Shown here: one piece after another, positions 37,635 through 64,000 of the stretch
Layout of the letters: each line of letters begins with the position of its first letter
Numbering within the stretch: the stretch's first letter is position 1
NCBI GenBank assembly: GCA_046482545.1
Contig: JAWOEX010000021.1
Location: 128,001-192,000 of the forward strand
Length of the DNA stretch: 64,000 nt
Origin: Candidatus Thorarchaeota archaeon
GTDB taxonomy: Archaea; Asgardarchaeota; Thorarchaeia; Thorarchaeales; Thorarchaeaceae
Direction of reading: 5' to 3'
Made by a program: the position numbers and the translations under genes
The notes under the pieces: model-generated
Databases searched by the model: none
What the model was told of the DNA's origin: nothing
Seen by the model: the letters and a program-made list of their open reading frames with translations, nothing else

Positions 37635-38982
37635 AAAAATGACTGAATACGCCTTTGTCCTCGGTAAGAATTGGACGCTTTCAATTGCAGAGCTTTTGGA
37701 ATATCTGACTGACAGGGGAATCGATTATGACATTGTAGACTATTCACGAACCTCCATCGTACTCGACCTTCACAGATATTTTGAACCCCGTGATCTTGGT
37801 GATATTCAGGAGGCCTTGGGTGGATGCTACAAAATCGGAAAAGTAGTATCCAGATTCAACAAGGATTTAGCAGTCAGGGCGTTCCCGGCAAAGGGGAATA
37901 TTCACAGAGATGCAAGAGGAAGGCTGCGTGAATGTCCGTGGGTCGATAGAATATGGGACAGGGTTAGGGGCAAGAAAATCAAGTTTGGTTTCAGCACATA
38001 TCCATTGGTGAACTATGAAAGTAAAATAGACCTGAAGAAGCTCACGCTAGGTCTCGATGAATGGACCAAAAGAAAGTTGACTGAGAGTGGAGCGAGAAGG
38101 GCGATCTATTACGCATACGATGAATCTAATCCCGATGACCCAGATGCACCTAATATGGCATTATGGCCTCAGACTGTTGCTGAACAGGAACTATACAAAC
38201 CACCGAATTCAGAGATACTCGTTCTTCTTACGACGAACAGAATGTACATTGCGAATACGATTGTGCTCTACGACTCGATGCTTCAGAAGTACCGCGATGA
38301 ATCTCGCCCGTATGTTGCAGCCGAAATTAGCACGAGTCCAAAAATCTGTAGGACTTTGCTGAATCTTGCAGGAGCTCGCAGGGGAGATACCGTACTCGAT
38401 CCGTTTTGTGGAACCGGTACACTGCTCATGGAGGCGGCCCTGCTAGGAATGCATGTTATAGGAATTGACTTGGATGGGAACACAGCACAAGGGGCACGAT
38501 CGAATCTTCAATGGCTTGAGAGAGACTTGGATGAAAAGATTGAGTATAGGATAATCAGGGGGGACGCCCGAAAAGCCGATAGATTGATTCAAGAGACGAT
38601 TGATGCAGTAGCTTTTGAACCAGAGCTCGGACCAGTTTTCGATAACCCACCACAACCAAAGAAAGCAAAATCCATCATCAGTGACCTCACCAAGCTCTAT
38701 ACACAGACACTCAATGCAGTAGCAATGAGACTGAGACCTAGTGGGCGCGTTGGAATGACATTGCCAGTTATCAATGCCGTAGGCAACCAAGTGAACGTGG
38801 ATGTCTATAAGATGACAGAAGGAACACCTTTTAGCGTTAAGAAAATGCTGAGACGAAGCCAGCTTGGCAGCCAAGAGAAAATCGACGAGCGTGTTAAGCT
38901 GTATCCGAACAGAGAGACACTGCCAGAGCGTAAAAGGGGGCAGGTAGTTCAGCGCGATGTGTTGATGCTCAGCAAAGACTAG
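37627..38982 (+). CDS. Trm11-like SAM-dependent RNA methyltransferase
   Basis: RDESRP, SPKICRTLLNL, LDPFCGTGT, EPELGP. Confidence 0.78.
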   Translation: MSKKMTEYAFVLGKNWTLSIAELLEYLTDRGIDYDIVDYSRTSIVLDLHRYFEPRDLGDIQEALGGCYKIGKVVSRFNKDLAVRAFPAKGNIHRDARGRLRECPWVDRIWDRVRGKKIKFGFSTYPLVNYESKIDLKKLTLGLDEWTKRKLTESGARRAIYYAYDESNPDDPDAPNMALWPQTVAEQELYKPPNSEILVLLTTNRMYIANTIVLYDSMLQKYRDESRPYVAAEISTSPKICRTLLNLAGARRGDTVLDPFCGTGTLLMEAALLGMHVIGIDLDGNTAQGARSNLQWLERDLDEKIEYRIIRGDARKADRLIQETIDAVAFEPELGPVFDNPPQPKKAKSIISDLTKLYTQTLNAVAMRLRPSGRVGMTLPVINAVGNQVNVDVYKMTEGTPFSVKKMLRRSQLGSQEKIDERVKLYPNRETLPERKRGQVVQRDVLMLSKD

Positions 38983-39812
38983 AAAAGGTATCTGATGACA
39001 TCGTCAACTATGGCGTAAGTCTCCAGCCGGTCCAAATCTCGCTTGACATATGGCATCGCATGTTCAAAAATCATCTGCTTGAATCTTTCCTCTCCTACTG
39101 TTTCTCTTGTAGTGGTAGCTACGACTTGGAGGATGTCTTCGAGTGCTTTTCGAAGAGTGCGATAGCCGATGTTATCTACATCTAGGCAGAATACATCTAT
39201 GCCGCTCCCATCAATCTCAATTTCGTCCAAAACATAGCTGTGTTTTCGCATGGGCTCAATTTCCCGAACAATGCGTGCCAGTAGATCCTTGCGTTTCCCC
39301 TTGTCCTCTTCCGCCTTGAGAATTGAATGATACAAATGACTGTAAACCGATAGACAATCCATTGCCTTCCCAGTTACTAATCGTTCATCACTCTGTTCAT
39401 ATTGGCTTACAAGCTCATCGATAAAGTGGCTAAAATCATTGAACTCCCCAGGTGCGCCATGCCAGTTTTTCAGTACAGAGGCGACATCCTTGCCTTCTTC
39501 CTTCATTCGCCGCTGAAACTCGTCTAAAGCGTACTTGAGAAGAAATCGCATGTGAGAAAGCCGGGTTGATTTAGAAATTACCATAACAAATAGCAGGTCA
39601 TCGTTGGCCACCCAAACATAGCGATTTCCTTCTGTATCAATCGTCTGCAGCTCCTCTGATGACGCCTTGTCGATGAAAGTATGAGTTGCTGAAAGGAACG
39701 GCGCGATGAGATCCATATCTATAGATACGTCTGAATACGCCCTTGCAACTAGGTAGCGTCCTGTTTCTCGTTCAATAAGCCAGACTCCGTGTATGTCTCT
39801 TCGCGCAGGCAA
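38979..39812 (-). CDS. Longin-domain protein
   Basis: IHGVWLIERETG...DLIAPFLSATHTF...LLFVMV longin pattern with helical C-domain. Confidence 0.65.
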   Translation of the reverse strand: MPARRDIHGVWLIERETGRYLVARAYSDVSIDMDLIAPFLSATHTFIDKASSEELQTIDTEGNRYVWVANDDLLFVMVISKSTRLSHMRFLLKYALDEFQRRMKEEGKDVASVLKNWHGAPGEFNDFSHFIDELVSQYEQSDERLVTGKAMDCLSVYSHLYHSILKAEEDKGKRKDLLARIVREIEPMRKHSYVLDEIEIDGSGIDVFCLDVDNIGYRTLRKALEDILQVVATTTRETVGEERFKQMIFEHAMPYVKRDLDRLETYAIVDDVIRYLF

Positions 39813-43097: not shown

Positions 43098-44447
43098 TCA
43101 ACCAGAAGTGATTCGCACGTTATCTATGACAATTGATGGCGAGACCACAGACATTGTAGTTCTCACATCCTCGCCAACGTTACTTACCCGTGAAAGCAAA
43201 TCGCGCATGTTAATTCCAATAAGGGTGTTCTTGACGGGGTGTTTAATCTCGCCCTGCTCCACATAGAAGCCTTCCATAATCATCGCGCTGAGCTCTCCCG
43301 TAGTCATGTTAGGTCGATCTGCAGTATTCCGGCACACAATAGCTCGATCCATTTCTGAAATAAAATCCTTTAGTGAGTGTCTATCAGGCTCAATTATGAA
43401 ATTGGTTGTTGAAATTGATGGCGTTCCTGAGTAAGAGCTCCTAGAAGCGTTTGCAGTATTCTCTACACCCTCCCTACTGGCAGTATACGAATTGTGAAGG
43501 TGACTTTTCAACACACCATCAGATAAAATAACGGTCTTTCGGGATGGTACGCCTTCAGCATCAAATGGGCGACTGCTTATGCCCCTCGGGATTGTCGCAT
43601 CATCAACGATGGAAATCTTTTCGGATGCGATTTGGTTTCCAATATCGTCACTTATGTAGGAACGCCCATCCTGTACTTCTTCCGCGTTCACAGCTCCACC
43701 AAAACCATATCCTATAACCCGTCCAACGGCCAGCGGTGTGAAAATAACAGGCATGTACCCTTCCTCAACCGTCTTTCCTCCCAATCCATCCAAGGCTGAC
43801 TTCCCGGCTGAGGAACCAACCCACTCGGGATTTATGTCATCTAGCGACCGGGATATTTGGTACTCATAGCTGGAATTCTGACCATTCTCAGACCTAACGG
43901 TGGGAGAACTGAACAGAAATGCAGCAGTAGATTCCTCAAAACCAGAGATGCCCAAGGAGTTCACGATTGCCCTCGAGAGAGAAGTTGCTGTAAAAGATGC
44001 CTCAACCGCTGTTCTAAACGGCTCTGTTGCCTCCAGAGAAGCATCAACAGCACGAATCAGATAATCAGCAGCTTCGTCTGGCATCAGCTCCTTGATGGAT
44101 GCATCGAAAACACCTTGGATAGTTGGGTAATCCTTGTCAAGGGCAGGCAGGGTCTCAAAGTCTGAATCGGGTAGTGATGCATGGGCAAGTGCAACAGATT
44201 CTTCGGCTATCTCACGGATATCAGCAGTGTCCAGATTTGTAACATAGGCGAATCCAACCCTCTTTCCAATTACTGATCTGATACCACAACCCATATCGCA
44301 ATCGTGGCTTGCTGCTTTAACAGAATTGTTCTCTACTTCAATCGAAACAGATTTAGAAGATGCCGTGTAGGCTTCGGCTTGATCAGCACCAAGCTTCTCA
44401 GCCAAGCTAACTGTGTCTTCAGCAATACGCACTAAATCTTCCTTCAG
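43098..44447 (-). CDS. pmbA: PmbA/TldE family protein
   Basis: GIRSV, FDAEG, no HExxxH; start approximate. Confidence 0.88.
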   Translation of the reverse strand: MKEDLVRIAEDTVSLAEKLGADQAEAYTASSKSVSIEVENNSVKAASHDCDMGCGIRSVIGKRVGFAYVTNLDTADIREIAEESVALAHASLPDSDFETLPALDKDYPTIQGVFDASIKELMPDEAADYLIRAVDASLEATEPFRTAVEASFTATSLSRAIVNSLGISGFEESTAAFLFSSPTVRSENGQNSSYEYQISRSLDDINPEWVGSSAGKSALDGLGGKTVEEGYMPVIFTPLAVGRVIGYGFGGAVNAEEVQDGRSYISDDIGNQIASEKISIVDDATIPRGISSRPFDAEGVPSRKTVILSDGVLKSHLHNSYTASREGVENTANASRSSYSGTPSISTTNFIIEPDRHSLKDFISEMDRAIVCRNTADRPNMTTGELSAMIMEGFYVEQGEIKHPVKNTLIGINMRDLLSRVSNVGEDVRTTMSVVSPSIVIDNVRITSG

Positions 44448-44449
44448 CT

Positions 44450-45835
44450 TTACATCCCTCCCACGGGTACTTTCCTTATTCGAGCATGTGGACCACCACT
44501 CATATCTGGCACCTTCTGCCCCGACTTCCCGCATGTCCCAGAATCCATTCTGAAATCATCACCAATAGCATCTATCTTGGGCAGAATATCGAGAATCTGT
44601 CCAGCGATGGATACATCGCGGACCATATCGCCAATTTCGCCATTTGTTATCTCGAATCCATGACTTGCCTGAAACATGAATTGTCCTTTAGCCGGGCTGG
44701 TGTATCCGTAATTGAAGCTGCACAGAAGAAGTCCTGTATCTGTATCCTCAACCATTTCATCAACGTTCCAATCTCCAGACTCCATGAAAGTATTGCTCAT
44801 TCGTGGCATCGGCGAGTACATGAACGACTGAGCCCGTGCAGCCCCATTTGGTGTCTTATCAAGTCGGGATGCAGTCTCCAAACTGTGGAGAAGCTCAGTC
44901 AGAAAACCGTCTTTGACAAGCGAGCGGCGGGTCGCTTTTGTCCCCTCCCAATCATAATCAAACGAGCCACGCATACCTGGCAATGTAGGATCATCAACTA
45001 TGTTTAGATTCTCAGGACCAACACGGTCACCTAATTTACCTTCCAATACTGTAGTATGCGCTGGCCAATTGTCAGCCTCACAAGCATGCCCAAAGGCTTC
45101 ATGAATCATGACCCCATTGAGAATAGGATCAAGAATGACATCATACACACCACCCTGAACAGCCGTCGATCTCAACATTTCCACGGCGAGCTCGGCGGTT
45201 TTGGTCCCGATGGTTTGAGGATATTCGTTCTCCAATTCCTCAAAGCCGCCACGACCACCATACGACTTGAAAGCGGTCCGCCGATCACCGTTCTCTTTTG
45301 CGGTCACAGAGGATATAACCCGAGGGAGGCTATTACCGAACGTAACACTGGTACCAAATGAATTTGCAACATGTAGGACACAATTGAAGTCACCATATAC
45401 TGCTCGTGAATTCACGATACGTTCATCATAATCATGAGCTTGTTTATCGATCCGTCTAGCAAGATCCACCTTTTCCGCGATAGGAGTTTCCCGGATATCT
45501 TTGGTGACTTTCATTATACACCTGTCTTGGTAGGTTGGACCATCAAGCTCAAACTTCTCAGATGCACGTTCTTCGATTGCTAGGGCCAGTTCAGCGACAC
45601 TTTTGCCACGCTCGCGCATAGTATTCGCCGTCATTCTGTTTTCCTGACCAAAAGCCCAAGCACCGTTCTTGAATGCCCTAATGCCAGCTCCACGGTTTCG
45701 TGATGTTGCAGATTTCTTTGTTACCCCATTGCTTATTTCAATAGTAGTTAGATGTGAGTCTTCTACTCTCACATCGGCAAAATCGGCTCCCACCTCGAGA
45801 GCAGCCTCAATAGCTTCGCGGGCCAAGTGCTCCAT
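44450..45835 (-). CDS. tldD: TldD metalloprotease
   Basis: HEAFGHACEAD, RMSNTF, CGKSGQ. Confidence 0.92.
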   Translation of the reverse strand: MEHLAREAIEAALEVGADFADVRVEDSHLTTIEISNGVTKKSATSRNRGAGIRAFKNGAWAFGQENRMTANTMRERGKSVAELALAIEERASEKFELDGPTYQDRCIMKVTKDIRETPIAEKVDLARRIDKQAHDYDERIVNSRAVYGDFNCVLHVANSFGTSVTFGNSLPRVISSVTAKENGDRRTAFKSYGGRGGFEELENEYPQTIGTKTAELAVEMLRSTAVQGGVYDVILDPILNGVMIHEAFGHACEADNWPAHTTVLEGKLGDRVGPENLNIVDDPTLPGMRGSFDYDWEGTKATRRSLVKDGFLTELLHSLETASRLDKTPNGAARAQSFMYSPMPRMSNTFMESGDWNVDEMVEDTDTGLLLCSFNYGYTSPAKGQFMFQASHGFEITNGEIGDMVRDVSIAGQILDILPKIDAIGDDFRMDSGTCGKSGQKVPDMSGGPHARIRKVPVGGM

Positions 45836-45943: not shown

Positions 45944-47539
45944 GTGCCACATGACCATGGAGGCCAGTTATTGAATCAAGAGACACAACCGCCTAGTTGC
46001 GAGAATTGTAGTACTGCAGAAGCCTCTCATATGTGTAAGGATTGTGGAGCGGCCATCTGTGCTGACTGCATTGAGACTGATAGCACAGAATACATTGTAT
46101 GTAGTGAATGCCATCATACAGTCAGTAGCGAGGATTCTGAGGAACAGCCAACTGAATGCCCAGAATGTGACTCTGATAATCTGAGCAAGGGGAGACGAAT
46201 GATTGAACGTTGCCCTCACTGTCACTCCACCCGACTTGTGCTCATTGAGAAACGGAGAGGAGAATTATCCAGGGAAATACGCAAATCAGTCATGACGCTT
46301 CAGTATGGTCACACCAAGCTCCGCGAGTTTGGTAGTAAATTGGACAAAGCCAAGAGAGATCTCGTATCGCTTCGAATGGCAAATTTTCTTCATTACAAGT
46401 GGCTTGAAAGTAAAATCGAACAGATTCACGAGGAAATGCCAGCCATAAAGAGAAGGATTGGAAACAAGGCAGAACTTGTTGCAAAGCAAATAGCAGCAGA
46501 GACCAAAGGACTGATGGTTTCAGAAAGCTGGAGTCCATCCCAGTTTCCCTTTATCGAAGGAGTGAGCAACAGGATTAGGGAGTTGGGAAACGGCTACAAA
46601 CACAGCGTAGATGAAGCATTGGACAAGGCAACAAGCATCTTGAAAGAAGTAAATACACAAATAGATGGTCTCAACTACTACAGAAAAAGATTCAGTAGCT
46701 TCTATGAGAACGCAGATCTTTCGGTCAAGGAATTGCCTGTATGTGCACTTCCCGAGATTAAGCTGGCTGGAAGTGACTTTCTGAAAAATGACAAAGCATG
46801 TGGCACTCTGTACATGACCAACAAACGCTTGGTATTCATCGCAGAAACTGGACATATTCGAAAGAGCATGGAAGTCATTTTCGATTTTCCCCTTGTCTAT
46901 CACACAGGATTCTCGGAAGAGGGACGACTAAGAAAGAGAATGGTAATGAAACTCAAGCAAGGTGATATCAAATTCGAATGTTCAGAACAAACCGAGAAAG
47001 TTCTTCCTGATTATATCCAGATAGCAAAACAATTCGATAGGTATGTACAAACCGACTTGGAACGGGTGCGCAAACTGGAACAACAGAAAACCAATTCTGG
47101 TGAAGTCAGATTAAAAATTGAAAGACTGGTCTACCAGCTGCTCTCCGGGAGGAGAGGTGTACAGCGCAAAGCAGAATTGAAAGATGTAACTCCGAGACAG
47201 CCACGGATTTCTTCTGGTTTTAACACAATTCGAAAGAGCTATGAGGATCGCATGAATCAAGACGATAGCGAAATAACCGATTATAGAGTAGAAGACGATT
47301 TCTTTGGCAGACTGCAAGGACAGTATCATGAATCTCGGAATAGCCGTAGAGAGAACAGGTATCAAACTCCCCCCAGTAACTTCAACGAGAAGATAAGGGA
47401 AACCATCAAAATGTTACGCAATGGACAGATAGTTCCTGAGAATTTCATAAGAAGATACAGGAGTCTTATGCGCGAGTCTTACGAGGATAGACACGGTATC
47501 CAGTCAAGAAGCTCAGATAGAGATTCTTTCAATTGGTAA
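45944..47539 (+). CDS. Zn-finger/coiled-coil/GRAM-PH protein with C-terminal steadiness-box-like hairpin (ESCRT-I Vps23/37-like)
   Basis: CENC..CKDCGAAICADC plus further CxxC pairs; GTLYMTNKRLVF; IKMLRNGQIVPENFIRRYRSL; adjacent to ESCRT genes. Confidence 0.65.
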   Translation: MPHDHGGQLLNQETQPPSCENCSTAEASHMCKDCGAAICADCIETDSTEYIVCSECHHTVSSEDSEEQPTECPECDSDNLSKGRRMIERCPHCHSTRLVLIEKRRGELSREIRKSVMTLQYGHTKLREFGSKLDKAKRDLVSLRMANFLHYKWLESKIEQIHEEMPAIKRRIGNKAELVAKQIAAETKGLMVSESWSPSQFPFIEGVSNRIRELGNGYKHSVDEALDKATSILKEVNTQIDGLNYYRKRFSSFYENADLSVKELPVCALPEIKLAGSDFLKNDKACGTLYMTNKRLVFIAETGHIRKSMEVIFDFPLVYHTGFSEEGRLRKRMVMKLKQGDIKFECSEQTEKVLPDYIQIAKQFDRYVQTDLERVRKLEQQKTNSGEVRLKIERLVYQLLSGRRGVQRKAELKDVTPRQPRISSGFNTIRKSYEDRMNQDDSEITDYRVEDDFFGRLQGQYHESRNSRRENRYQTPPSNFNEKIRETIKMLRNGQIVPENFIRRYRSLMRESYEDRHGIQSRSSDRDSFNW

Positions 47540-47540
47540 A

Positions 47541-48167
47541 TCATATACCGAGCTCGTTCTCTAGACTTTGAATAGCTCGCTCCAGCTTATCGATTTCGGT
47601 TACCTCTCTGGTAGCAGTCCTTGTCTCCTCCATTCCTGCTGCACGATCTATTTCTTCGAACGCAGCTGTTAATTCATCCGAGCTTTCAGAACCGTCCACT
47701 GAATATCCGAGAGCATCCTCAGAAATCTGGGTTTCAATCTCGTATTCCTCGATACGTCTGGAAATCTCGTCGGTATGTTCTATGACCTCCGATACATCAG
47801 ATTCTTCACCAAGAATTTCAAGAACCTTCGATACGTCAGCCAGAGCATGATTTGCCTTTGCGTTGGTCTGTGCTCTAGTTAGATGAGCGAGTAGACGAAG
47901 CATTTGAAGGCGTGACTTCTCTACCGAAAGAACATATTTTCGAAATCGAACCATTTCTTTTGTATATGTTCGATACGCTTGTGTCCTCCCTTCTTTACGT
48001 GCCGTGATAGCTCTAGATTTGGTTTTTCGTTCCTCTATTTCTAGTTTATTCCGTTGACGCTCAAGTTGCTTGGCCATCACCCTAAGATCGCTTTTCACTT
48101 CAGCGATATTCGGCTTGTGTCGTCCCCAAGATAGCGCCTTCCTCACGGAATCGAGAACTCTAACCAT
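47541..48167 (-). CDS. ESCRT-III protein (Vps2/24/46-like)
   Basis: LRVMAKQLERQRNKL...YTKEMVRFRK, basic N-half and acidic C-half, terminal amphipathic helix; start 48167 or 48188. Confidence 0.85.
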   Translation of the reverse strand: MVRVLDSVRKALSWGRHKPNIAEVKSDLRVMAKQLERQRNKLEIEERKTKSRAITARKEGRTQAYRTYTKEMVRFRKYVLSVEKSRLQMLRLLAHLTRAQTNAKANHALADVSKVLEILGEESDVSEVIEHTDEISRRIEEYEIETQISEDALGYSVDGSESSDELTAAFEEIDRAAGMEETRTATREVTEIDKLERAIQSLENELGI

Positions 48168-48284
48168 GGCTATCACAGGAGTTTCCATTATACCATTTTT
48201 AACACCATGTAACACGCACCTTGTCAAGAATAGAAATCGAAAGCCCATTCTCCCATTGGATTCCTAAGGTCATACATGGTTTAA

Positions 48285-48304
48285 AGAATGGTCTGGACCA
48301 TTCT
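48285..48304. promoter_or_regulatory. Palindrome immediately downstream of TATA-like TTTAAA at vps4 promoter
   Basis: AGAATGGTC-TG-GACCATTCT. Confidence 0.5.
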
Positions 48305-48318
48305 CCAGTTGAGTTCCT

Positions 48319-49545
48319 ATGCCAAATGATGCAAGTACCATAGATGAAGGCCTCAAGCAGTTACTTGAGACCGCGGTGGATCTAGATTCCAAGGGTATGC
48401 TCAAGGAAGCAAGTGAATACTACCTGAGCGGCAGCAAGGTCCTCCTCAAACTTGCAAAAGGATCTTCTCTTCCTAGCATTCGTAAACATTACTATGAACG
48501 GGCTCAGGAATGTGTACAAAGGGTTCGAGAAATCTCAGGTATCAATGAGAATTCTAGAAACCAAGATGCAAGAAGCATATCTCATCCCCCAAGAAATACC
48601 AAGGGTGAAGACATAACAAAACCATCGCGTAGATCTGCAGAAGAGGGTGACGAAGAAACGGGAAAGCTACGGGAGATGATAAGGAGAACAATTACAACCA
48701 GAAAGCCCAATGTGGCAATGTCAGATGTTGCAGGGCTTGATGATGTGAAGAATACCATTCATGATGCTGTAGTCACACCAATAAAGCATCCCGAGCTGTT
48801 TAAGGGAAGAGCAAGACAACCATGGAAGGGAATCCTGCTCTATGGGCCTGCAGGATGTGGGAAAACTCTAATAGCTAAAGCAGTGGCAACAGAAGCTGAG
48901 GCCACATTCTTCAACGTATCTGCCGGGAACATGGTAAGCAAGTGGTTGGGCGAATCAGAACGCCTCGTGATGACTCTCTTTGAAATGGCAAGAGAAACTC
49001 AACCGTCGGTCATCTTCCTCGATGAGCTCGATTCCATAGGTGTGTCTCGGAGTGCAAGTGACTTGGGCGGCGAAAGAAGACTCAAGACGCAATTGCTCAC
49101 CGAATTGCAGGGTCTTTCCAACGACATCAATGAAAGAGTGACGCTGATAGGAGCCACAAATCTTCCGTGGGAGATTGATTTTGCCCTTCTATCAAGATTT
49201 GAGAAAAGAATTCATGTTCCGCTTCCTGATAAATCCACAAGAGAACGGATATTCGAAATCCACATGGAAGATATCGATATCACACCTGATGTCAACTATT
49301 CAGAACTAGCAGAATTAGCGAAAGGTTTCAGCGGACGAGATATTAGCGTGGCATGCAGAGAAGCCGCGATGGAACCAATTAGAGAATTGAAGGAACAAGG
49401 CAAGCTCAAAAAGGAGGAGACCATAACTGAAGTTCGTTCTGTAAACAGACGGGACTTCATTGAAGCCCTTCAAACAATAAAGCCCACCTCAAAACAAGAA
49501 CAGATCGAAAAATACTCTTCATGGGCGGAGGACTATAGCCGTTGA
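48319..49545 (+). CDS. vps4: Vps4 AAA+ ATPase with MIT domain
   Basis: MIT (AVDLD..A..YY), GPAGCGKT, VSKWLGESE, FLDE, GATNLPW, GFSGRDI. Confidence 0.92.
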   Translation: MPNDASTIDEGLKQLLETAVDLDSKGMLKEASEYYLSGSKVLLKLAKGSSLPSIRKHYYERAQECVQRVREISGINENSRNQDARSISHPPRNTKGEDITKPSRRSAEEGDEETGKLREMIRRTITTRKPNVAMSDVAGLDDVKNTIHDAVVTPIKHPELFKGRARQPWKGILLYGPAGCGKTLIAKAVATEAEATFFNVSAGNMVSKWLGESERLVMTLFEMARETQPSVIFLDELDSIGVSRSASDLGGERRLKTQLLTELQGLSNDINERVTLIGATNLPWEIDFALLSRFEKRIHVPLPDKSTRERIFEIHMEDIDITPDVNYSELAELAKGFSGRDISVACREAAMEPIRELKEQGKLKKEETITEVRSVNRRDFIEALQTIKPTSKQEQIEKYSSWAEDYSR

Positions 49546-50240
49546 CTGTCAGAGAGAAGGCAAGGAAGAAAGAAGAAAAGGAAATTGAGGATAATACAAC
49601 CGTAGAAAAGGAACATGAAACTGCCACCTCATCACCGCTTTCAGATAATGAAACACAGATAAAACAAGTAGGAGCCCAAGAGTCTATAGATCGTGAGAAA
49701 GCTGAAACCAAAGTTGGTCAAAAGAGTCAGTCTTTGGAAACATTGATACCCGATTGGGGAACTTCCGAAAAAGCTGCCTGGATGTATTTACTACCTACAA
49801 CAGAAGAGGGGGTTAAAAGGTGGGCAAAGGACTGGACCGATTTCCTGATAGAGTGGGCAGACTATAACAATCGATATGTTTTCTCATTTTCAACGTTTAT
49901 CAGAGAGCCTCCCTTCTGTGAAATGCGCAACAAAAGGAAAGCTTTCTCCGAGATAGCTGAATCATTAATTCAACAAGGATTGGCTGAGTGGAGAGATGAT
50001 AGAAAGAGAAACCTTCAGCTGATGTGGAAGTCAAAGAAAGAGGTAGCAGATGATTTGTATGCGTGGGCTCTGAAGACGGGAACCATGCATCTTGACCTCA
50101 GGAGCATGGTGATAGAAGATAGCTTCGACTTTGGTGGATTGCCGCAAGAAGATATCAAAGAGATTTTTGATATAATTGTCCTGAGCGGAAGAGCTGAATG
50201 GGTAGATAAAGAGCGTGCCATGATTAAATTGAATACCTAA
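49542..50240 (+). CDS. vps25: ESCRT-II Vps25-like protein
   Basis: W..DWTDFLIEW, GLAEW, WKSKKEVADDLYAWA, GRAEWVD tandem winged helices; TTGA overlap with vps4. Confidence 0.8.
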   Translation: MTVREKARKKEEKEIEDNTTVEKEHETATSSPLSDNETQIKQVGAQESIDREKAETKVGQKSQSLETLIPDWGTSEKAAWMYLLPTTEEGVKRWAKDWTDFLIEWADYNNRYVFSFSTFIREPPFCEMRNKRKAFSEIAESLIQQGLAEWRDDRKRNLQLMWKSKKEVADDLYAWALKTGTMHLDLRSMVIEDSFDFGGLPQEDIKEIFDIIVLSGRAEWVDKERAMIKLNT

Positions 50241-51028
50241 CTTGCTTCCTGTGCGCTATCGGATTTTTGGTCGGAGCGTAACCCTGGGAAGTAGTATTTT
50301 CCACCACTGCTGAATCTAATATCTGCCACGGCAATTCCGGCCTCGACTAGACTGCTGAGAACTTGGCGTGCATGGTCTTCTGACCATCGAAGATTCATCA
50401 TGACTTGTTCAATGGTCACATGGCCATTTGCTGCAGCTAGATTAATCACCTCAGCTTGGTCTCCCCGCAGTTCTAGTGGGCGTAGTTCCACCACTTTGAC
50501 TCCACCTCCAAGCGTTCGAATTCCTGGAAGAAGACCATGTTCTGCAACACGGTTTACAGCTTCGATAACGTCGTTGTAGCTTACTGAATTCAGCTCTGGA
50601 ATCCTACGAACAACACGTACAATCAGTTCTGCAAGACCCATTAGACCCTTCGATGCATTTGCGGTAGCTACATCAAGAATAGCCAGGCCAATTTGATCAT
50701 AGTATTCCTCCTCGGTCATACCTCGAGGGGGGCCATTCGAACCGTCCGCGAAGAATTGTAAAAGTTCAGCAGCATCAGGAAATCTGTCTAAGATACGCTC
50801 TTCATATATGAAATCCTGTAAATCTTGGCCTCGACGGCGCATACGATCAATATTGGACTTAACATCAAGCATCAGAGCTTCTGATTCGCGTCGATAGGAT
50901 TTCACCCCAACTACTCCCATGTCATACATCTTCTTTAGCTGGTCCAAGGTAGCTATTGAAGCGTATAATTCTGATTCTACATGGAAATCCATCGGCAAGC
51001 CATCACTATCCGGAGTGTCTAGATGCAT
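50237..51028 (-). CDS. Vps28 N-domain - Vps22/EAP30 fusion (ESCRT-I/II)
   Basis: SELYASIATLDQLKKMY...SY (Vps28N-like); YYDQIGLAI...PLELRGDQAEVINLA..GHVT...LRWS...LVEAGIAVAD...YYFP (EAP30). Confidence 0.82.
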   Translation of the reverse strand: MHLDTPDSDGLPMDFHVESELYASIATLDQLKKMYDMGVVGVKSYRRESEALMLDVKSNIDRMRRRGQDLQDFIYEERILDRFPDAAELLQFFADGSNGPPRGMTEEEYYDQIGLAILDVATANASKGLMGLAELIVRVVRRIPELNSVSYNDVIEAVNRVAEHGLLPGIRTLGGGVKVVELRPLELRGDQAEVINLAAANGHVTIEQVMMNLRWSEDHARQVLSSLVEAGIAVADIRFSSGGKYYFPGLRSDQKSDSAQEAS

Positions 51029-51085: not shown

Positions 51086-52456
51086 CTATGGGGTGAGGCG
51101 GTCACGATCTCTGGGTAGCAGAGAGGCTTCTCGAATATTATTTAAATTCAAGAGCTGCATGGTAAGCCGTTCCACTCCGAGTCCCAAACCACCATGCGGC
51201 GGAGCACCATACTTGAAAGGTTCCAAGTAGAACATGAAGTCCTCAGGATTAAATCCCTTTTCTTCGAATTTCTCTACCAATAAATCATAGATATGGATTC
51301 TCTGACCACCTGTCGTGATTTCCATTCCTTTGTACGTGAGGTCGAAGCTTTCGGTTAATCCGGGCTGACTCATGCTAGGCATGGTGTATGCAGGTCGTAG
51401 CTCGGAGGGGTAATGAGTTATGAAAACAAAAGGTGAACCAAATCGCTTGGGGAAAGCTTCCCTCAATATCCCCTCGCTTTCTGGATCCAAATCTTCCCCC
51501 ATGGAAATATCCTTTCCTTCCTCATTGAGGATATCCACGACTTTCTCATACTTTACCCGTGGAAATGGTATGCTAGGAACTTTGAAGTCTATTTGAAATG
51601 CTTCTCTGTTCTCTAGAAATCGCTCACGAGTCTTCGCAAAGGCATAATGAAGCATCCTTTCCTCCAACTCCATGACTTCATCCATATCTCGTATCCACGC
51701 TATCTCAATATCAAAAGATGTGTATTCATTGATATGTCGAATCGTGTTGTGTTTCTCAGCCCTGAATACAGGTCCAATCTCGAAAACCTTTCCAAAGCCG
51801 GCGAGCAGCATGAGTTGCTTGTAGAACTGTGGACTCTGAGCGAGGAATGCAGAACGATCGAAATACTTCACTTCGAAAAGGCTTGCGCCACCTTCGGTTG
51901 CTGAGGCGACTATTTTTGGGGTATGTATTTCCATGAAACCGCTTTTCTCCAGATATTCGCGGCAAAATCTAACAATATCATGCTGTAACCGAAATATCGA
52001 GTTAAGGCGAGGTTTTCTCAAATCAAGTATGCGATGATTAAGACGGGTATCCAAGTCGATGTCTACTTTCCCTTCGACTACATCAATTGGAATCCTTTCG
52101 GACTTGTTGATGATTCGTATTTCATCGGGAATGATTTCTACACCAGTATCAACCTGAGGTGCTTCCACAACTTCCCCCTTGACAGCAATCACATACTCTG
52201 GTTTCAAATCCTCAGATAGCTGGAATACGTCAGCTGGAACTCTCTTCTTCGGCAATGTTACTTGAACGGTGCCTTTCTCATCCCTCAATACCAGAAACTT
52301 GATGCTACCCTTGTCTCGTAGAATGTGCACCCATCCAAAGAGGGTTACTTCCTCTCCTTCGGTTCCAGATTGTATCTCTCTAGAGAAATGGGTCCGTTCC
52401 CAGTCACCAATGCTATCCAAACCATACTTATTGCACAAGTCATCAAGTCCGCTCAA
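51086..52456 (-). CDS. aspS: Aspartyl-tRNA synthetase (archaeal type)
   Basis: GWVH..RDKG, LAQSPQFYKQ, FRAE, GAPPHGGLGLGVER; TTG 52456 likely start. Confidence 0.95.
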   Translation of the reverse strand: MSGLDDLCNKYGLDSIGDWERTHFSREIQSGTEGEEVTLFGWVHILRDKGSIKFLVLRDEKGTVQVTLPKKRVPADVFQLSEDLKPEYVIAVKGEVVEAPQVDTGVEIIPDEIRIINKSERIPIDVVEGKVDIDLDTRLNHRILDLRKPRLNSIFRLQHDIVRFCREYLEKSGFMEIHTPKIVASATEGGASLFEVKYFDRSAFLAQSPQFYKQLMLLAGFGKVFEIGPVFRAEKHNTIRHINEYTSFDIEIAWIRDMDEVMELEERMLHYAFAKTRERFLENREAFQIDFKVPSIPFPRVKYEKVVDILNEEGKDISMGEDLDPESEGILREAFPKRFGSPFVFITHYPSELRPAYTMPSMSQPGLTESFDLTYKGMEITTGGQRIHIYDLLVEKFEEKGFNPEDFMFYLEPFKYGAPPHGGLGLGVERLTMQLLNLNNIREASLLPRDRDRLTP

Positions 52457-52526
52457 ACTGTACACCAGCCTTTTGTCAGCAAGAAATGTCGGGTGCAGTT
52501 GTGTTATGAGGGTTTTGTTCTTCCAT

Positions 52527-52835
52527 CTACATCGGGGCTGCAAGGAGCTCGTAGACGACTTTCCTTCCGTCATTTGCGTGCTCCTCGTCTGTCACAAGGC
52601 CTAAATCTTTAAGCCTGCTCAGGCCATAGTTGACAGTTCGAGGGGGTAGAAAGCTCTCCTCGATAATAGCCTGACGTGACATGCGCCGTTTGTTCTTTAG
52701 CAGCACATAGAGAAGTTTAGCGGAAGGAGGTAAGTCTAAGAATGAGCGCCTGGCAAACGCGATCCCACCTGATTGCTGTTGCCATGTCACTTTACCTCCA
52801 ATTTCTTTTGACGAAGTTTGATGAACGATGCTCAT
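52527..52835 (-). CDS. MarR-like HTH protein
   Basis: LPPSAKLLYVLL...LPPRTVNYGLSRL...DGRKVVY. Confidence 0.8.
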   Translation of the reverse strand: MSIVHQTSSKEIGGKVTWQQQSGGIAFARRSFLDLPPSAKLLYVLLKNKRRMSRQAIIEESFLPPRTVNYGLSRLKDLGLVTDEEHANDGRKVVYELLAAPM

Positions 52836-57779: not shown

Positions 57780-58829
57780 CTAATAGCTAGGCATTGCATT
57801 CTCGCGATAGTCCGAATAGTTGGCAGGATACCCACGTGTTATAGCAACCCGATTTGCTCCGACTTCGTTGGCCAATGTTTTGAGTATTTGGAGTTCCTCT
57901 ATGTCATCCAAGGCCCATCTGAAGAGCGTAACATGTCCTCCTCGACGGTTGAACTCGCGAATGAAATGCAGCTCTTCAACAAGCTCCTCGTAGTTCTTGG
58001 AGCCTACTGGATCCAAGCCAGGTGTCCAAGGATATAGATTTACCATAATACTACCGGTGATATCCCTAATTCTGGAGAAATCATATCCATTATGATTCTT
58101 TGCACCTTTGACCAATCCAGTACTAGGATCAATTAGTACTTCGATAGAAAGGCGTGGTGAAGACACCTCCTCGTCACCTTGAACCGCTTCAGCATTAGCC
58201 TGTTGCAAGGCCTCAATCCCATCAACGAATTTTTCCCTTCGCCACTCATGCCATTCGTCAAGATGATTCGGGTGATCAGTGAGATATTTGTGAGAAAGCT
58301 GTTCTGGTTCAATTTTAATCTTGGATGAGAATTCCTTCCTGCAAACATCACAGAAGCAGAACTTCTCGCTAAGATAGCCAGTCCCAAGCACAAGAATTTC
58401 GTCTATAGGCAGATTGCTTAGTTCTTTCACTACCTCAGCACCATAATCCCAGATTTCTCTCCTGTTGGGACAAACGTGCTGCAGCGAAGCATTTCCTTTT
58501 GAGTCAAGAGTCTGAGATTCTTGATTCCCCGCAAATCGAGAATCGGTATAATAATTCATAGCAACAATAGTGTCTATTTCGAGAGCATTAGATAGTTCAA
58601 TCCATTCCTCAAAAAATTCAGCCATAGCATCATCCACTGGAGCTTGGTCACTCTCAAAGTAAGCTTGACCATCAGCAGCCTTCGCAATAATTGCTGCTGC
58701 ATTCATGTACGAAGCGTAATTGGACATGAATTCTCTCGCTCCTATGTCAATCTCGTTTGGATCGAAGAGTATGACAGCCTTCTCCATGAGCATCTCTCGG
58801 ATTGTATCATCAGCCATTTGTAGTTCCAC
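57780..58829 (-). CDS. Glycoside-hydrolase-like (GHL10-type) TIM-barrel protein
   Basis: VCPNR, FCFCDVCRKEF, W.EWR. Confidence 0.55.
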   Translation of the reverse strand: MELQMADDTIREMLMEKAVILFDPNEIDIGAREFMSNYASYMNAAAIIAKAADGQAYFESDQAPVDDAMAEFFEEWIELSNALEIDTIVAMNYYTDSRFAGNQESQTLDSKGNASLQHVCPNRREIWDYGAEVVKELSNLPIDEILVLGTGYLSEKFCFCDVCRKEFSSKIKIEPEQLSHKYLTDHPNHLDEWHEWRREKFVDGIEALQQANAEAVQGDEEVSSPRLSIEVLIDPSTGLVKGAKNHNGYDFSRIRDITGSIMVNLYPWTPGLDPVGSKNYEELVEELHFIREFNRRGGHVTLFRWALDDIEELQILKTLANEVGANRVAITRGYPANYSDYRENAMPSY

Positions 58830-62860: not shown

Positions 62861-64000
62861 GTGAGTCCAAGAAAGCTTGCCTTCTTCGATAAAACGCAAA
62901 ATGAGCGTGGAAAGCTCGATTCAACTTATTCGGAACTCGGCAAGCTTCTGCGCGAAAACGGCTTCGATGTTCAGCCGTATACTGAATACATGATTTTGCT
63001 TGATGAAATTGAAAAGGCAGATATCATGGTCTTTGGTTGTCCAAATAGTTCCAAATTGCGAAAGGAGGAAATTGGTGTTCTAGAGAAATTCGTGAAAAAT
63101 GGTGGAGGGCTCGTTCTTCTCGCCCTGTCCGGTGGTGACAAGGGACTCATGAACAACCAGTCCGAATTATCTCAAAAATTTGGAATATCATTCCAAAATA
63201 CAGCAGTAAAGGATGATAGGAACAATGCTGGACTCCCCACCATGGTTATCATTGACAATGTAGTAGACCATCCAATCACAGAAGGGGTCAATGATCTCCT
63301 ATATCCATCAGGATGTAGCCTAAAGAATTCAAAAGATGCTGTGCCAATCGCGATGACCTCAGGTACAGGTGACCCCGCTAACGCACCCATAGCAGTAATA
63401 ACAGAATATGACGATGGAAGAGTCCTGTGTATCGGGAGCTACGAAATCTGGAGAAACGGTAGCGGAATCAAGCATCAGGGAAACAAAACATTTGCTGTGA
63501 ATGCATTCAGCTGGCTTGCAGCTCAAGAAAAGCCAAGAAAACCTGCGAGCCAACAAGAACCAGAGGGAAAAATCAGGACAACGGAATCGGAATCAGTTGC
63601 GGAGTATAATAAAGTCGCTAAGGATACTGAAAATGCGCTCAAAAGGCTCATCTCTACCGTATTTGACCTGCAGGATGACATAGAACAGATGAGCGAGAGT
63701 CTTTCAGGCGTCAACGATAACGTTGAGAACCTTCGTGAGGAATTCAAAGCTTTTGCGGAGTCCACACAATCTCAGCTAGGCCTAGTCATACCAACAGAGC
63801 AATTCAGAAGTCACGAAGCAAGTACGAAAGAGGGCTTAGAAGGGGAAATCAAATCGATTGAAAAAGAGATGGACTCTATCAACAAGCTGAAAGAGCATCT
63901 CGAAAGTAGACACATATCTGGAGCAATATCGAAAGATGTCTTCAAAGAGCAGACGGAAAAGCTGACAAAAAGGCTTGAAGGGCTTGAGAAGCGCCTAAGC
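62861..64000 (+). CDS. GIFT (GldG/IFT52-like) domain + coiled-coil protein, runs off window edge
   Basis: Not in ORF track. From GTG 62861: FFDKTQNE...YSELGKLLRENGF...EEIGVLEKFVKNGGGLVLL..GGD...FGISF...HPITEGV...SGCSL; frame open to 64000. Confidence 0.75.
   Translation, partial: MSPRKLAFFDKTQNERGKLDSTYSELGKLLRENGFDVQPYTEYMILLDEIEKADIMVFGCPNSSKLRKEEIGVLEKFVKNGGGLVLLALSGGDKGLMNNQSELSQKFGISFQNTAVKDDRNNAGLPTMVIIDNVVDHPITEGVNDLLYPSGCSLKNSKDAVPIAMTSGTGDPANAPIAVITEYDDGRVLCIGSYEIWRNGSGIKHQGNKTFAVNAFSWLAAQEKPRKPASQQEPEGKIRTTESESVAEYNKVAKDTENALKRLISTVFDLQDDIEQMSESLSGVNDNVENLREEFKAFAESTQSQLGLVIPTEQFRSHEASTKEGLEGEIKSIEKEMDSINKLKEHLESRHISGAISKDVFKEQTEKLTKRLEGLEKRLS

Follow-up and report, generated by a model that had tools for sequence, protein, structure and literature searches.

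Within the window, meaning the whole 64,000-nucleotide stretch of DNA that was analysed, five contiguous open reading frames at 45944-51028 make up the standard ESCRT cluster of Thorarchaeota. A sequence-only reading had named the five genes, and all five identities hold in Pfam searches, an AlphaFold2 (AF2) model, and fold and profile searches. Taken by themselves, the identities of the cluster parts are almost certain. The genes and their flanks are as follows.

43098..45835, minus strand: TldD/PmbA gene pair, conserved flank of the ESCRT block (Pfam and synteny)
45944..47539, plus strand: Znr_CC_PH_SB gene, Vps23-like ESCRT-I adaptor (longest ORF 531 aa; homologues, AF2 model)
47541..48248, minus strand: ESCRT-IIIA, Vps2/24/46 class (Snf7, 37.6 bits)
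48319..49545, plus strand: Vps4 ATPase with MIT, AAA, lid and Vps4_C (Pfam MIT, AAA, Vps4_C)
49542..50240, plus strand: Vps25, ESCRT-II (Pfam PF05871 (ESCRT-II), 3.2e-10)
50237..51028, minus strand: Vps28N-Vps22 fusion gene, 263 aa (Pfam EAP30, 1.6e-13)
51086..52573, minus strand: class II aminoacyl-tRNA synthetase (Asp/Lys/Asn type), conserved other flank (Pfam and synteny)

The strands switch along the cluster, as had been described, but they do not strictly alternate, the order in the ORF list being + - + + -. The junctions are as tight as claimed, with a 1-nt gap at 47540 and 4-nt overlaps at 49542-49545 and 50237-50240. Vps25 is probably co-translated with Vps4, given its 4-nt overlap with the Vps4 stop. 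In Thor the adaptor and ESCRT-IIIA genes point toward each other in the ORF list, and are therefore not co-transcribed. The aminoacyl-tRNA synthetase gene runs in the same direction as the fusion gene and lies 57 nt upstream of it.

The three genes between the adaptor and the fusion encode familiar proteins. The likely start codon of ESCRT-IIIA is ATG 48188, for a product of 215 aa (homologues have 205-210 aa); the protein has the Snf7 fold, and its best PDB matches (CHMP2A, CHMP1B, CHMP3, and Vps24) place it in the Vps2/24/46 class. Vps4 carries the MIT domain, the AAA ATPase, and the Vps4 C-terminal domain in Pfam. Vps25, present as one copy in the genome, has the tandem winged helices of the Asgard Vps25 structure 7pb9_A (E 2e-28). 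The earlier statement that no Vps20/32/60 gene is present is correct for the window, but a search for a second ESCRT-III found a Vps20/32/60-like ESCRT-IIIB gene elsewhere in the genome, on contig C20. The pathway is not without Vps20/32/60, because this gene simply sits on another contig.

A synteny survey found the block TldD-TldD-adaptor-ESCRT-IIIA-Vps4-Vps25-fusion-aaRS in four other Thor genera. Since the same five genes and flanks recur, chance does not account for the block. Distribution was sampled in 201 of the phylum's genomes, 43 of them in the Thor family; the adaptor is present in 42 of the 43 family genomes, and so is a Vps22 homologue. It could be argued that the present genome has a new ESCRT system of its own, specially rewired, as gene 1 is unnamed by Pfam and its database homologues are all labelled hypothetical. 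The block and flanks kept in other Thor genera, the adaptor's distribution, and the publication of the orthologous Thor AB_25 genes and protein families refute this proposal, to which we give next to no credence.

Domains of the adaptor

The adaptor gene has no Pfam match above threshold. A database search returned more than 160 Thor homologues with 47-76% identity; identity to most other Thor copies is 47-54%, and the present genome belongs to a different genus from AB_25. Translation probably starts at TTG 45971, giving 522 aa; GGAGG lies 7 nt upstream of this codon, and the database copy of the protein also has 522 aa. Four regions are distinguished.

45998..46222, plus strand: zinc module, aa 19-93 (six CxxC pairs)
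46244..46690, plus strand: three-long-helix bundle, the 'CC' stalk, aa 101-249 (AF2 model)
46691..47041, plus strand: PH-like domain of GRAM/GLUE type, aa 250-366 (fold and profile matches)
47345..47521, plus strand: Vps23-type steadiness box (SB), helical hairpin aa 468-526 (profile search against the PDB)

The six CxxC pairs are consistent with three zinc sites, and the module resembles a B-box/RING-type finger combined with a zinc ribbon. When family members from the whole phylum are aligned, conservation is at least 90% for each of the 12 cysteines. Pfam matches DZR in 26 and zf-B_box in 18 of 42 family members, and RNF4 RING and FYVE match weakly. The stalk helices (101-142, 148-186, and 198-249) have pLDDT values mostly of 85-95 in the AF2 model, which also shows a beta-sandwich (265-345) with a capping helix in the PH region. 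This region matches the MTMR2 PH-GRAM domain (Z 12.1, rmsd 2.4, 103 aa), Lam6 (Z 11.3), and the EAP45 GLUE domain (Z 11.1), scores that count as tied. Family members match bPH_3 (31/42), GRAM (13/42), and Vps36 GLUE (6/42). The earlier assignment to a GRAM/GLUE type of PH domain is thus borne out by fold and by family.

A disordered linker (aa 405-467) leads to the SB hairpin, whose helices span 478-492 and 498-526 in the model. Few parts of the adaptor are conserved as well as this hairpin. When a phylum-wide profile was searched against 177,635 PDB sequences, the top matches were the yeast Vps23 C-terminus, 2f66_A (E 4.3e-4) over the SB and 2p22_A (4.5e-4) over stalk and SB (profile positions 376-497); TSG101 was matched at 0.024. 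The SB alignment is gap-free over 57 aa, and Pfam Vps23_core and Mod_r give sub-threshold matches in several family members. The tail is accordingly a Vps23-type steadiness box, as the sequence-only reading had it.

The adaptor thus has the C-terminal stalk and steadiness box of Vps23/TSG101 without their UEV domain, for which no match was found in the protein family. Where the eukaryotic ESCRT-I core has the UEV, the Thor protein has a zinc/stalk/PH head. The adaptor does have the features of the Znr_CC_PH_SB family: three N-terminal zinc ribbons or fingers, a coiled-coil/helical region, a PH domain, and a gene in an ESCRT neighbourhood.

Structure and origin of the Vps28N-Vps22 fusion

Gene 5 consists of two parts.

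50753..50995, minus strand: Vps28 N-terminal (headpiece) domain, aa 12-92 (BLASTP and fold match)
50279..50719, minus strand: Vps22/SNF8 core, two winged helices, aa 104-250 (SNF8 profile match, BLASTP)

The head is 34% identical (BLASTP, E 1e-11) to aa 15-91 of a full-length Asgard Vps28 (Pfam VPS28 positions 2-186 of 188), encoded by a gene that overlaps a canonical vps22 and stands directly upstream of it. In fold comparisons the modelled head scores Z 11.7 against 6vme_U, the human ESCRT-I headpiece (rmsd 3.3 over 86 aa), and Z 10.2 against 2f6m_D, the yeast Vps28-N, although for helical domains Z scores of 10-12 can come from common arrangements. Pfam VPS28 matches in 21 of 32 fusion-family members. 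The BLASTP and headpiece matches together confirm the proposed make-up of gene 5, with a genuine Vps28 N-terminal domain ahead of a Vps22 core. The core itself matches human SNF8 3cuq_A (E 3e-19; Foldseek 1.4e-8) and is 35% identical (E 4e-27) to aa 104-252 of canonical Asgard Vps22, with the two EAP30-type winged-helix domains of Vps22/SNF8.

Both parents appear truncated in the fusion. The C-terminal four-helix bundle of Vps28 is absent, Pfam VPS28 covering only model positions 2-60 of 188, and no further VPS28 match was found anywhere in the genome. The canonical N-terminal helical domain of Vps22, which in eukaryotes pairs Vps22 with Vps36, is also missing, EAP30 being matched only from model position 85. 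All 20 non-Thor Asgard Vps22 proteins examined have this domain (EAP30 match from position 2), and in six of these 20 cases a separate vps28 lies directly upstream. Given a head like Asgard Vps28-N and a vps28 directly upstream of vps22 in other lineages, the Thor gene looks like a deletion-fusion of the two.

Ubiquitin-related genes and the zinc module

No match to ubiquitin or UEV was found in the window or in the genome, which is 98.9% complete, and the sole E2 signal of the genome, a fragment scoring 17 bits, contains a stop codon. The same ubiquitin and UEV searches match many other Asgard genomes, which serve as positive controls. The absence of UEV, ubiquitin, and E2 genes noted for the window thus extends to the genome, and a canonical UEV-Vps23/ubiquitin system, looked for elsewhere in it, was not found. 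Ubiquitin occurs in 0/43 genomes of the Thor family versus 139/201 overall, and UEV in 0/43 versus 57/201. The sequence-only reading had the adaptor's Zn/PH head replace ubiquitin recognition, a proposal that gains no support here: most other Asgard families have both the adaptor and ubiquitin. That Thorarchaeota lack ubiquitin has been published before, and PMC9192718 notes this absence for the phylum.

The zinc module may nevertheless read a tag other than ubiquitin, by recognising either a modifier akin to SAMP/Urm1 or a ubiquitin-fold protein specific to the lineage. Two ThiF-type genes, which are E1-like, are present in the genome, the conservation of 12/12 zinc-binding cysteines across the phylum suggests a conserved ligand, and the zinc fingers of yeast Vps36 bind ubiquitin (PMC10936438). 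However, nearly all prokaryotes have ThiF-type enzymes for cofactor sulfur transfer, as controls confirmed, and neither ThiF-type gene is linked to the ESCRT cluster. The zinc module is of B-box/RING/ribbon type rather than NZF, and we found no tie between it and any ubiquitin-like protein. We consider such a tag quite improbable, and favour a mechanism in which no ubiquitin tag would take part, because the genome is without ubiquitin, UEV, and E2.

Proposed assembly and published systems

The SB tail is of Vps23 type and the fusion head is a Vps28 N-terminal domain; therefore both partners of the crystallised Vps23-C:Vps28-N complex (2F66/2F6M, 2CAZ) are present. Compared with this eukaryotic headpiece (also 2P22, and human 6VME), the adaptor tail aligns gap-free to the Vps23 SB, and the modelled fusion head superposes on Vps28-N. 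In the searches made here, which were for other families, neither Vps37 nor Mvb12 was identified. The SB and Vps28N hairpins have no significant mutual similarity (hhalign probability 5.5%), which speaks neither for nor against pairing. A Rosetta-stone case comes from one Asgard family, where the Zn-CC-PH module and an EAP30/Vps22 core share a single chain of 601 aa; Thor-built SB profiles detected neither hairpin in it. Docking of the SB onto Vps28N is strongly suggested by homology to the yeast crystal pair and by this natural fusion protein.

We propose that the 522-aa adaptor most likely sits on the membrane via its PH domain, and that the zinc module may add to the attachment. The C-terminal hairpin would plug into the Vps28-type headpiece, which is covalently fused to the Vps22 winged-helix core, and the core would bind Vps25. 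Vps25 would recruit ESCRT-IIIB, encoded on another contig, ESCRT-IIIB would nucleate ESCRT-IIIA, and Vps4, by way of MIT-tail contacts, would remodel the polymer. The process served may be vesicle budding, division, or repair. In eukaryotes, ESCRT-I is bridged to ESCRT-II non-covalently, by the Vps28 C-terminal domain binding Vps36. A peptide bond would take the place of this bridge in Thor, where the Vps28-type head lacks the C-terminal bundle and continues covalently into a Vps22 core in its place. As a whole, we regard this assembly as reasonably probable.

The hairpins may instead not pair at all, with the Vps28N head driving self-association of the Vps22 fusion and the adaptor acting directly on ESCRT-IIIA, bypassing ESCRT-II. 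The adaptor gene adjoins or lies near ESCRT-IIIA in many Asgard families, at 1-7 kb in families other than Thor, even with Vps22 and Vps25 elsewhere (loci L027-L033 and L037). In the two-hybrid data of PMC9192718, Thor Vps22 interacts with itself, and ESCRT-I/II may contact ESCRT-III without going through Vps25. Against this, a Vps23-type tail and a Vps28-N head are established cognate partners, the adaptor module and a Vps22 core occur fused in one natural protein, and the convergent Thor genes are not co-transcribed. We judge unpaired hairpins to be unlikely, and retain the docked assembly.

The sequence-only reading had considered the assembly logic possibly new, which can no longer be maintained. 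Hatano et al. (2022, Nat Commun 13:3398, PMC9192718) and Makarova et al. (2024, mBio 15:e00335-24, PMC10936438) have already described the cluster parts and most of the assembly proposed. The former paper has ThorAB25_08990 ('SB'), 09020 (Vps25), and 09030 (Vps22) with ESCRT-III and Vps4 in Thor AB_25, and reports yeast two-hybrid tests of the SB, Vps22, and Vps25 proteins. Besides the Vps22 self-interaction, these gave Vps25-ESCRT-IIIB and Vps4-ESCRT-III contacts and suggested that the SB protein interacts with a Vps28-type partner. Compared by proteins rather than gene order, the AB_25 cluster has the same proteins with the same domain make-up, and its published 'SB' and Vps22 sequences resemble the consensus of the adaptor and fusion families built here. 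The gene 5 counterpart is labelled simply Vps22 there, and in the accessible text its head is not described as a Vps28 N-terminal domain.

Makarova et al. (PMC10936438) define the Znr_CC_PH_SB family (asCOG cog.011556) by three zinc ribbons, a coiled coil, a PH domain, and a steadiness box, and suggest that it belongs to ESCRT-I and binds membranes through its PH domain. The present adaptor shares all of these domains, the C-terminal steadiness box included. The same work describes Vps22 fused to SB (cog.002769); in our genome sample the full Vps28N-Vps22 fusion is confined to the Thor order. The exact origin of the fusion and this restriction are not spelled out in PMC10936438 or in the accessible portions of PMC9192718.

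A broader reading is that in Thorarchaeia ESCRT-I and ESCRT-II form a single covalently bridged machine, born of a deletion across adjacent vps28 and vps22 that cost Vps28 its C-terminal bundle and Vps22 its N-terminal helical domain. The Zn-CC-PH-SB adaptor would serve as its GLUE-like membrane head, and adaptor and fusion together would be the split equivalent of ESCRT-I plus Vps36, without a ubiquitin-type tag. We offer this tentatively, at somewhat less than an even chance. The two Thor proteins together supply the GLUE-like PH domain, zinc fingers, and EAP30 core of Vps36, but on two polypeptides, whereas a single-chain form occurs in one other Asgard family. The zinc fingers of Vps36 are inserted in its PH domain, whereas those of the Thor adaptor are N-terminal, and the Thor winged-helix core is nearer to Vps22 than to Vps36.

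Gene order and adaptor architecture

The ESCRT block at 45944-51028 consists of five contiguous ORFs in the strand order + - + + -. The ORF coordinates confirm the tight junctions described in the sequence-only reading, with a 1-nt gap and two 4-nt overlaps. Four of the five genes are directly identified by Pfam (Snf7, Vps4, Vps25, and EAP30).

Genes of the ESCRT block, with the source of each call
45944-47539, +, gene 1, steadiness box (SB)-type adaptor (AlphaFold2 model, fold and profile searches)
47541-48248, -, gene 2, ESCRT-III (Snf7) (Pfam)
48319-49545, +, gene 3, Vps4 with MIT, AAA, lid, and Vps4_C (Pfam)
49542-50240, +, gene 4, Vps25 (Pfam PF05871)
50237-51028, -, gene 5, Vps28N-Vps22 (EAP30) (Pfam EAP30)

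The adaptor gene probably starts at TTG 45971, which GGAGG closely precedes and which would give the 522 aa of the database copy, and the ESCRT-III gene probably starts at ATG 48188. The host genome is 3.05 Mb and 98.9% complete, and the window belongs to its contig 26; the labels of homologues assign it to Thorarchaeota (Thor). The proposed synteny survey showed that the five-gene block recurs in four other Thor genera, flanked there too by the TldD/PmbA and aminoacyl-tRNA synthetase genes.

More than 160 close homologues of the adaptor were found; nearly all are labelled Thorarchaeota and 100% are annotated as hypothetical. We inspected an AlphaFold2 model of the adaptor based on 42 homologues (mean pLDDT 76).

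Regions of the adaptor in the AlphaFold2 model
aa 20-100, zinc-rich beta region
aa 101-249, three long helices
aa 265-362, beta-sandwich with a capping helix
aa 405-467, disordered linker
aa 478-526, terminal helical hairpin

The beta-sandwich is a GRAM/GLUE-type PH domain. Its best fold matches are tied between the MTMR2 PH-GRAM domain (Z 12.1), Lam6 (11.3), and the human EAP45 GLUE domain (11.1), and sub-threshold Pfam matches in the adaptor family are to bPH_3 (31/42), GRAM (13/42), and the Vps36 GLUE model (6/42). The whole-model Foldseek search is dominated by DH-PH proteins, in which a helical bundle is combined with a PH domain. We rejected RhoGEF homology and read this resemblance as a coincidence of adjacent folds. 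A Thor-only adaptor profile matched the yeast Vps23 C-terminus weakly (E 0.15-0.85). With a phylum-wide profile of 32 diverse members, the yeast Vps23 C-terminus topped all PDB sequences (2f66_A, E 4.3e-4; 2p22_A, 4.5e-4; 2caz_A, 1.4e-3), the steadiness box aligning without gaps over 57 residues, and human TSG101 was also matched (E 0.024). The zinc-binding cysteines are conserved phylum-wide (12/12). The fold matches, the Vps23/TSG101 profile matches, and the conserved cysteines therefore uphold the description of the gene 1 product as SB-like and as carrying both Zn fingers and a GRAM/GLUE-like domain.

Origin of the Vps28N-Vps22 fusion

Residues 104-250 of the gene 5 product form a Vps22/SNF8 core (human SNF8, E 3e-19; Foldseek 3cuq_A, 1.4e-8). 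The first 92 residues superpose on Vps28 of the human ESCRT-I headpiece (6vme_U; Z 11.7, rmsd 3.3, 86 residues), and this head also matches yeast Vps28-N (2f6m_D, Z 10.2; 2caz_B, Z 9.4). Pfam VPS28 is found below threshold in 21 of 32 fusion family members, always at model positions 2-60. A full-length vps28 (Pfam VPS28 2-186 of 188) lies directly upstream in 6/20 non-Thor vps22 loci, and the vps22 genes downstream of those six are canonical (EAP30 positions 2-219 of 219). In the one vps28/vps22 pair compared in detail, whose genes overlap, aa 15-91 of Vps28 share 34% identity with aa 12-90 of the fusion (E 1e-11), and aa 104-252 of Vps22 share 35% identity with its aa 104-250 (E 4e-27). Since the protein matches the products of both members of an adjacent Asgard pair, the assignment of gene 5 as Vps28N-Vps22 is borne out, and the gene is the N-terminal half of Vps28 joined to the Vps22 winged-helix core.

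The fusion is most simply explained by a single deletion spanning two adjacent genes. Such a deletion would have taken out the C-terminal bundle of Vps28 and the N-terminal helical domain of Vps22. In a sample of 201 Asgard genomes, the fused form was matched over its full length in the Thor family and its sister family of the same order but nowhere else, and the fusion is apparently restricted to that order. The vps28-vps22 adjacency is likely the ancestral arrangement of the Thor fusion, which illustrates how the coupling of ESCRT-I to ESCRT-II may be rewired through a single deletion. Several non-Thor Asgard families have vps28 immediately upstream of a canonical vps22 (loci L040-L045); at L044, vps28 (1298-1936, -) and vps22 (574-1332, -) overlap by ~35 nt.

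Ubiquitin, UEV, and the predicted SB-Vps28N contact

Ubiquitin and UEV had no match in the whole genome. The same models match 139/201 and 57/201 Asgard genomes, respectively, which serves as a positive control for this absence, and both match 0/43 genomes of the Thor family. The UEV count agrees with a 2023 preprint reporting Loki- and Thorarchaeia without UEV-Vps23. The finding named as refuting the proposed ubiquitin-less ESCRT-I/II assembly, a canonical system of ubiquitin and UEV-Vps23 at another locus of the genome, was therefore not made. The genome-wide searches (ubiquitin, UEV, E2, Vps28, Vps23 core, EAP30, Vps25, and Snf7) also covered window positions 1-37,000. For E2, the genome yields a single signal, a UQ_con fragment of 17 bits broken by TGA (contig C22:95554-95706, +), probably noise or a relic. 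Two ThiF-type E1-like genes are present, as in most prokaryotes.

The adaptor occurs in 133/201 genomes. It is common in families nearly all of whose members carry ubiquitin (adaptor 37/40 and ubiquitin 39/40 in family f9; 17/19 and 17/19 in f12; 6/6 and 6/6 in f19), which argues that it did not arise as a ubiquitin replacement. This distribution marks the adaptor as an ancestral Asgard part, retained where ubiquitin and UEV either disappeared or had never been gained. Of the 24 families matched by at least one of the adaptor, UEV, and Vps22, 23 have a UEV protein or the adaptor and eight have both, these being family-level counts from related genomes. The pattern fits UEV and the adaptor as alternative front ends, both built on a common Vps23-type plug.

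The predicted docking of the adaptor SB into the Vps28N of the fusion is supported indirectly by three lines of evidence. The adaptor SB and the fusion head are homologous to Vps23-C and Vps28-N, respectively, which were crystallised as a complex from yeast, and this supports the contact. So do the conservation of the block in Thor genera and that of the two hairpins, which rank among the most conserved parts of the adaptor and the fusion; the adaptor tail has a conserved F-I-R-R-Y-R motif. In a 601-aa protein of another Asgard family, P0271 (L034:7401-9206, +; contig C138 of G053), the Zn-CC-PH module is directly joined to an EAP30/Vps22 winged-helix core (Pfam EAP30, 1.8e-11; Vps36 GLUE model, 1.8e-4). 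Thor-built SB profiles detect neither hairpin in P0271, as expected if the hairpins are non-covalent connectors. Its match to an SB profile from alignment A3 was discarded as circular because P0271 itself is in that alignment. The core is nearer Vps22 than Vps36, and the preferred reading of P0271 is a fusion that arose independently and follows a Vps36-like plan. The same genome also encodes a separate 248-aa Vps22, the P0271 locus includes a UEV protein and a Snf7 gene, and genome G044 has a comparable frame of 608 aa.

Comparison of the adaptor hairpin with the Vps28N hairpin gave an hhalign probability of 5.5%, a value that bears on their pairing neither way. Searching the genome for another SB-bearing partner, with HMMs built from Thor sequences of the adaptor tail and of the Vps28N head, recovered just the two cluster genes, aside from weak matches at C40:32247-32573 (E 0.025) and C10:21866-22102 (E 0.0023). 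A 389-aa cytosolic-looking protein at window 62861-64000 plus 9 codons beyond (L038:362-1531) has an IFT52-type GIFT domain (E 1.2e-13) and a C-terminal coiled coil. It was rejected as SB-like: its tail yields only generic coiled-coil Pfam matches, and Vps23_core, Mod_r, and VPS28 are absent from the best 25 Pfam matches listed per query.

ESCRT-III classes, published counterparts, and neighboring frames

The ESCRT-III protein of the window belongs to the Vps2/24/46 (IIIA) class, with CHMP2A, CHMP1B, and CHMP3 as the best PDB matches. The reported lack of a Vps20/32/60 gene holds for the window but not for the genome, where the suggested check for a second ESCRT-III found an ESCRT-IIIB gene at C20:110881-111372 (-) (L001:1387-2046). 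This Snf7 gene, whose best matches are Heimdallarchaeota ESCRT-IIIB (9ftl) and yeast Snf7, is the only ESCRT-IIIB of the genome and lies apart from the remaining ESCRT genes. Both classes are therefore present in the pathway. The window Vps25 matches the solved structure of an Asgard Vps25 with an E of 2e-28.

The yeast two-hybrid set of Hatano et al. (2022; PMC9192718) includes ThorAB25_08990 "SB", 09030 Vps22, and 09020 Vps25, whose printed sequences are clearly of the same families as the window proteins. Passages of that paper describe Thorarchaeota without ubiquitin, self-interaction of Thor Vps22, and a free-standing SB protein that may interact with a Vps28-type partner, and a supplementary figure shows RING, CC, PH, and SB modules for a Lokiarchaeota homologue (PMC9192718). 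Makarova et al. (2024; PMC10936438) defined the Znr_CC_PH_SB family (cog.011556), regarding it as a probable component of ESCRT-I whose PH domain binds membranes, and Asgard Vps22 is stated there as SB-fused. The arrangement is thus not new, the gene set, protein families, and ubiquitin absence being already published (PMC9192718, PMC10936438), and the discovery value is modest for the same reason. The sequence-only reading is accurate in description and sound in structural logic, and re-derives a published system. Our additions are a firmer homology basis for the SB plug and Vps28N socket, the proposed deletion origin of the fusion with its apparent Thor-order restriction, and the adaptor/ubiquitin co-occurrence pattern.

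[quoted passage not shown] Thorarchaeota offer the natural case of an ESCRT-I/II/III pathway operating without ubiquitin. Should the adaptor dock on the fusion, as homology predicts, a compact three-protein upstream module would be available for reconstitution, which could reveal ubiquitin-independent membrane targeting of ESCRT-III.

Several other frames were observed. A 349-aa ORF at window 57780-58829 (-), between the genes for a zinc-ribbon protein and a family B DNA polymerase, has no Pfam match at E 0.001. A weak EAP30-like winged-helix segment (Pfam 22 bits) lies at C28:61015-61329 (-) inside a 1221-aa open frame; Thor relatives of this frame are ~690-850 aa long and match the Vps22 profile (e.g., at G069:C1:698545-698961) with E around 1e-23 to 1e-28. 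A 277-aa ORF at window 38979-39812 (-) has a weak longin match (Fuz_longin_1, E 3e-4), and the Asgard family of P0271 carries a longin-plus-Arf/Roc GTPase fusion beside ESCRT-related genes (L034:5465-6322, +).
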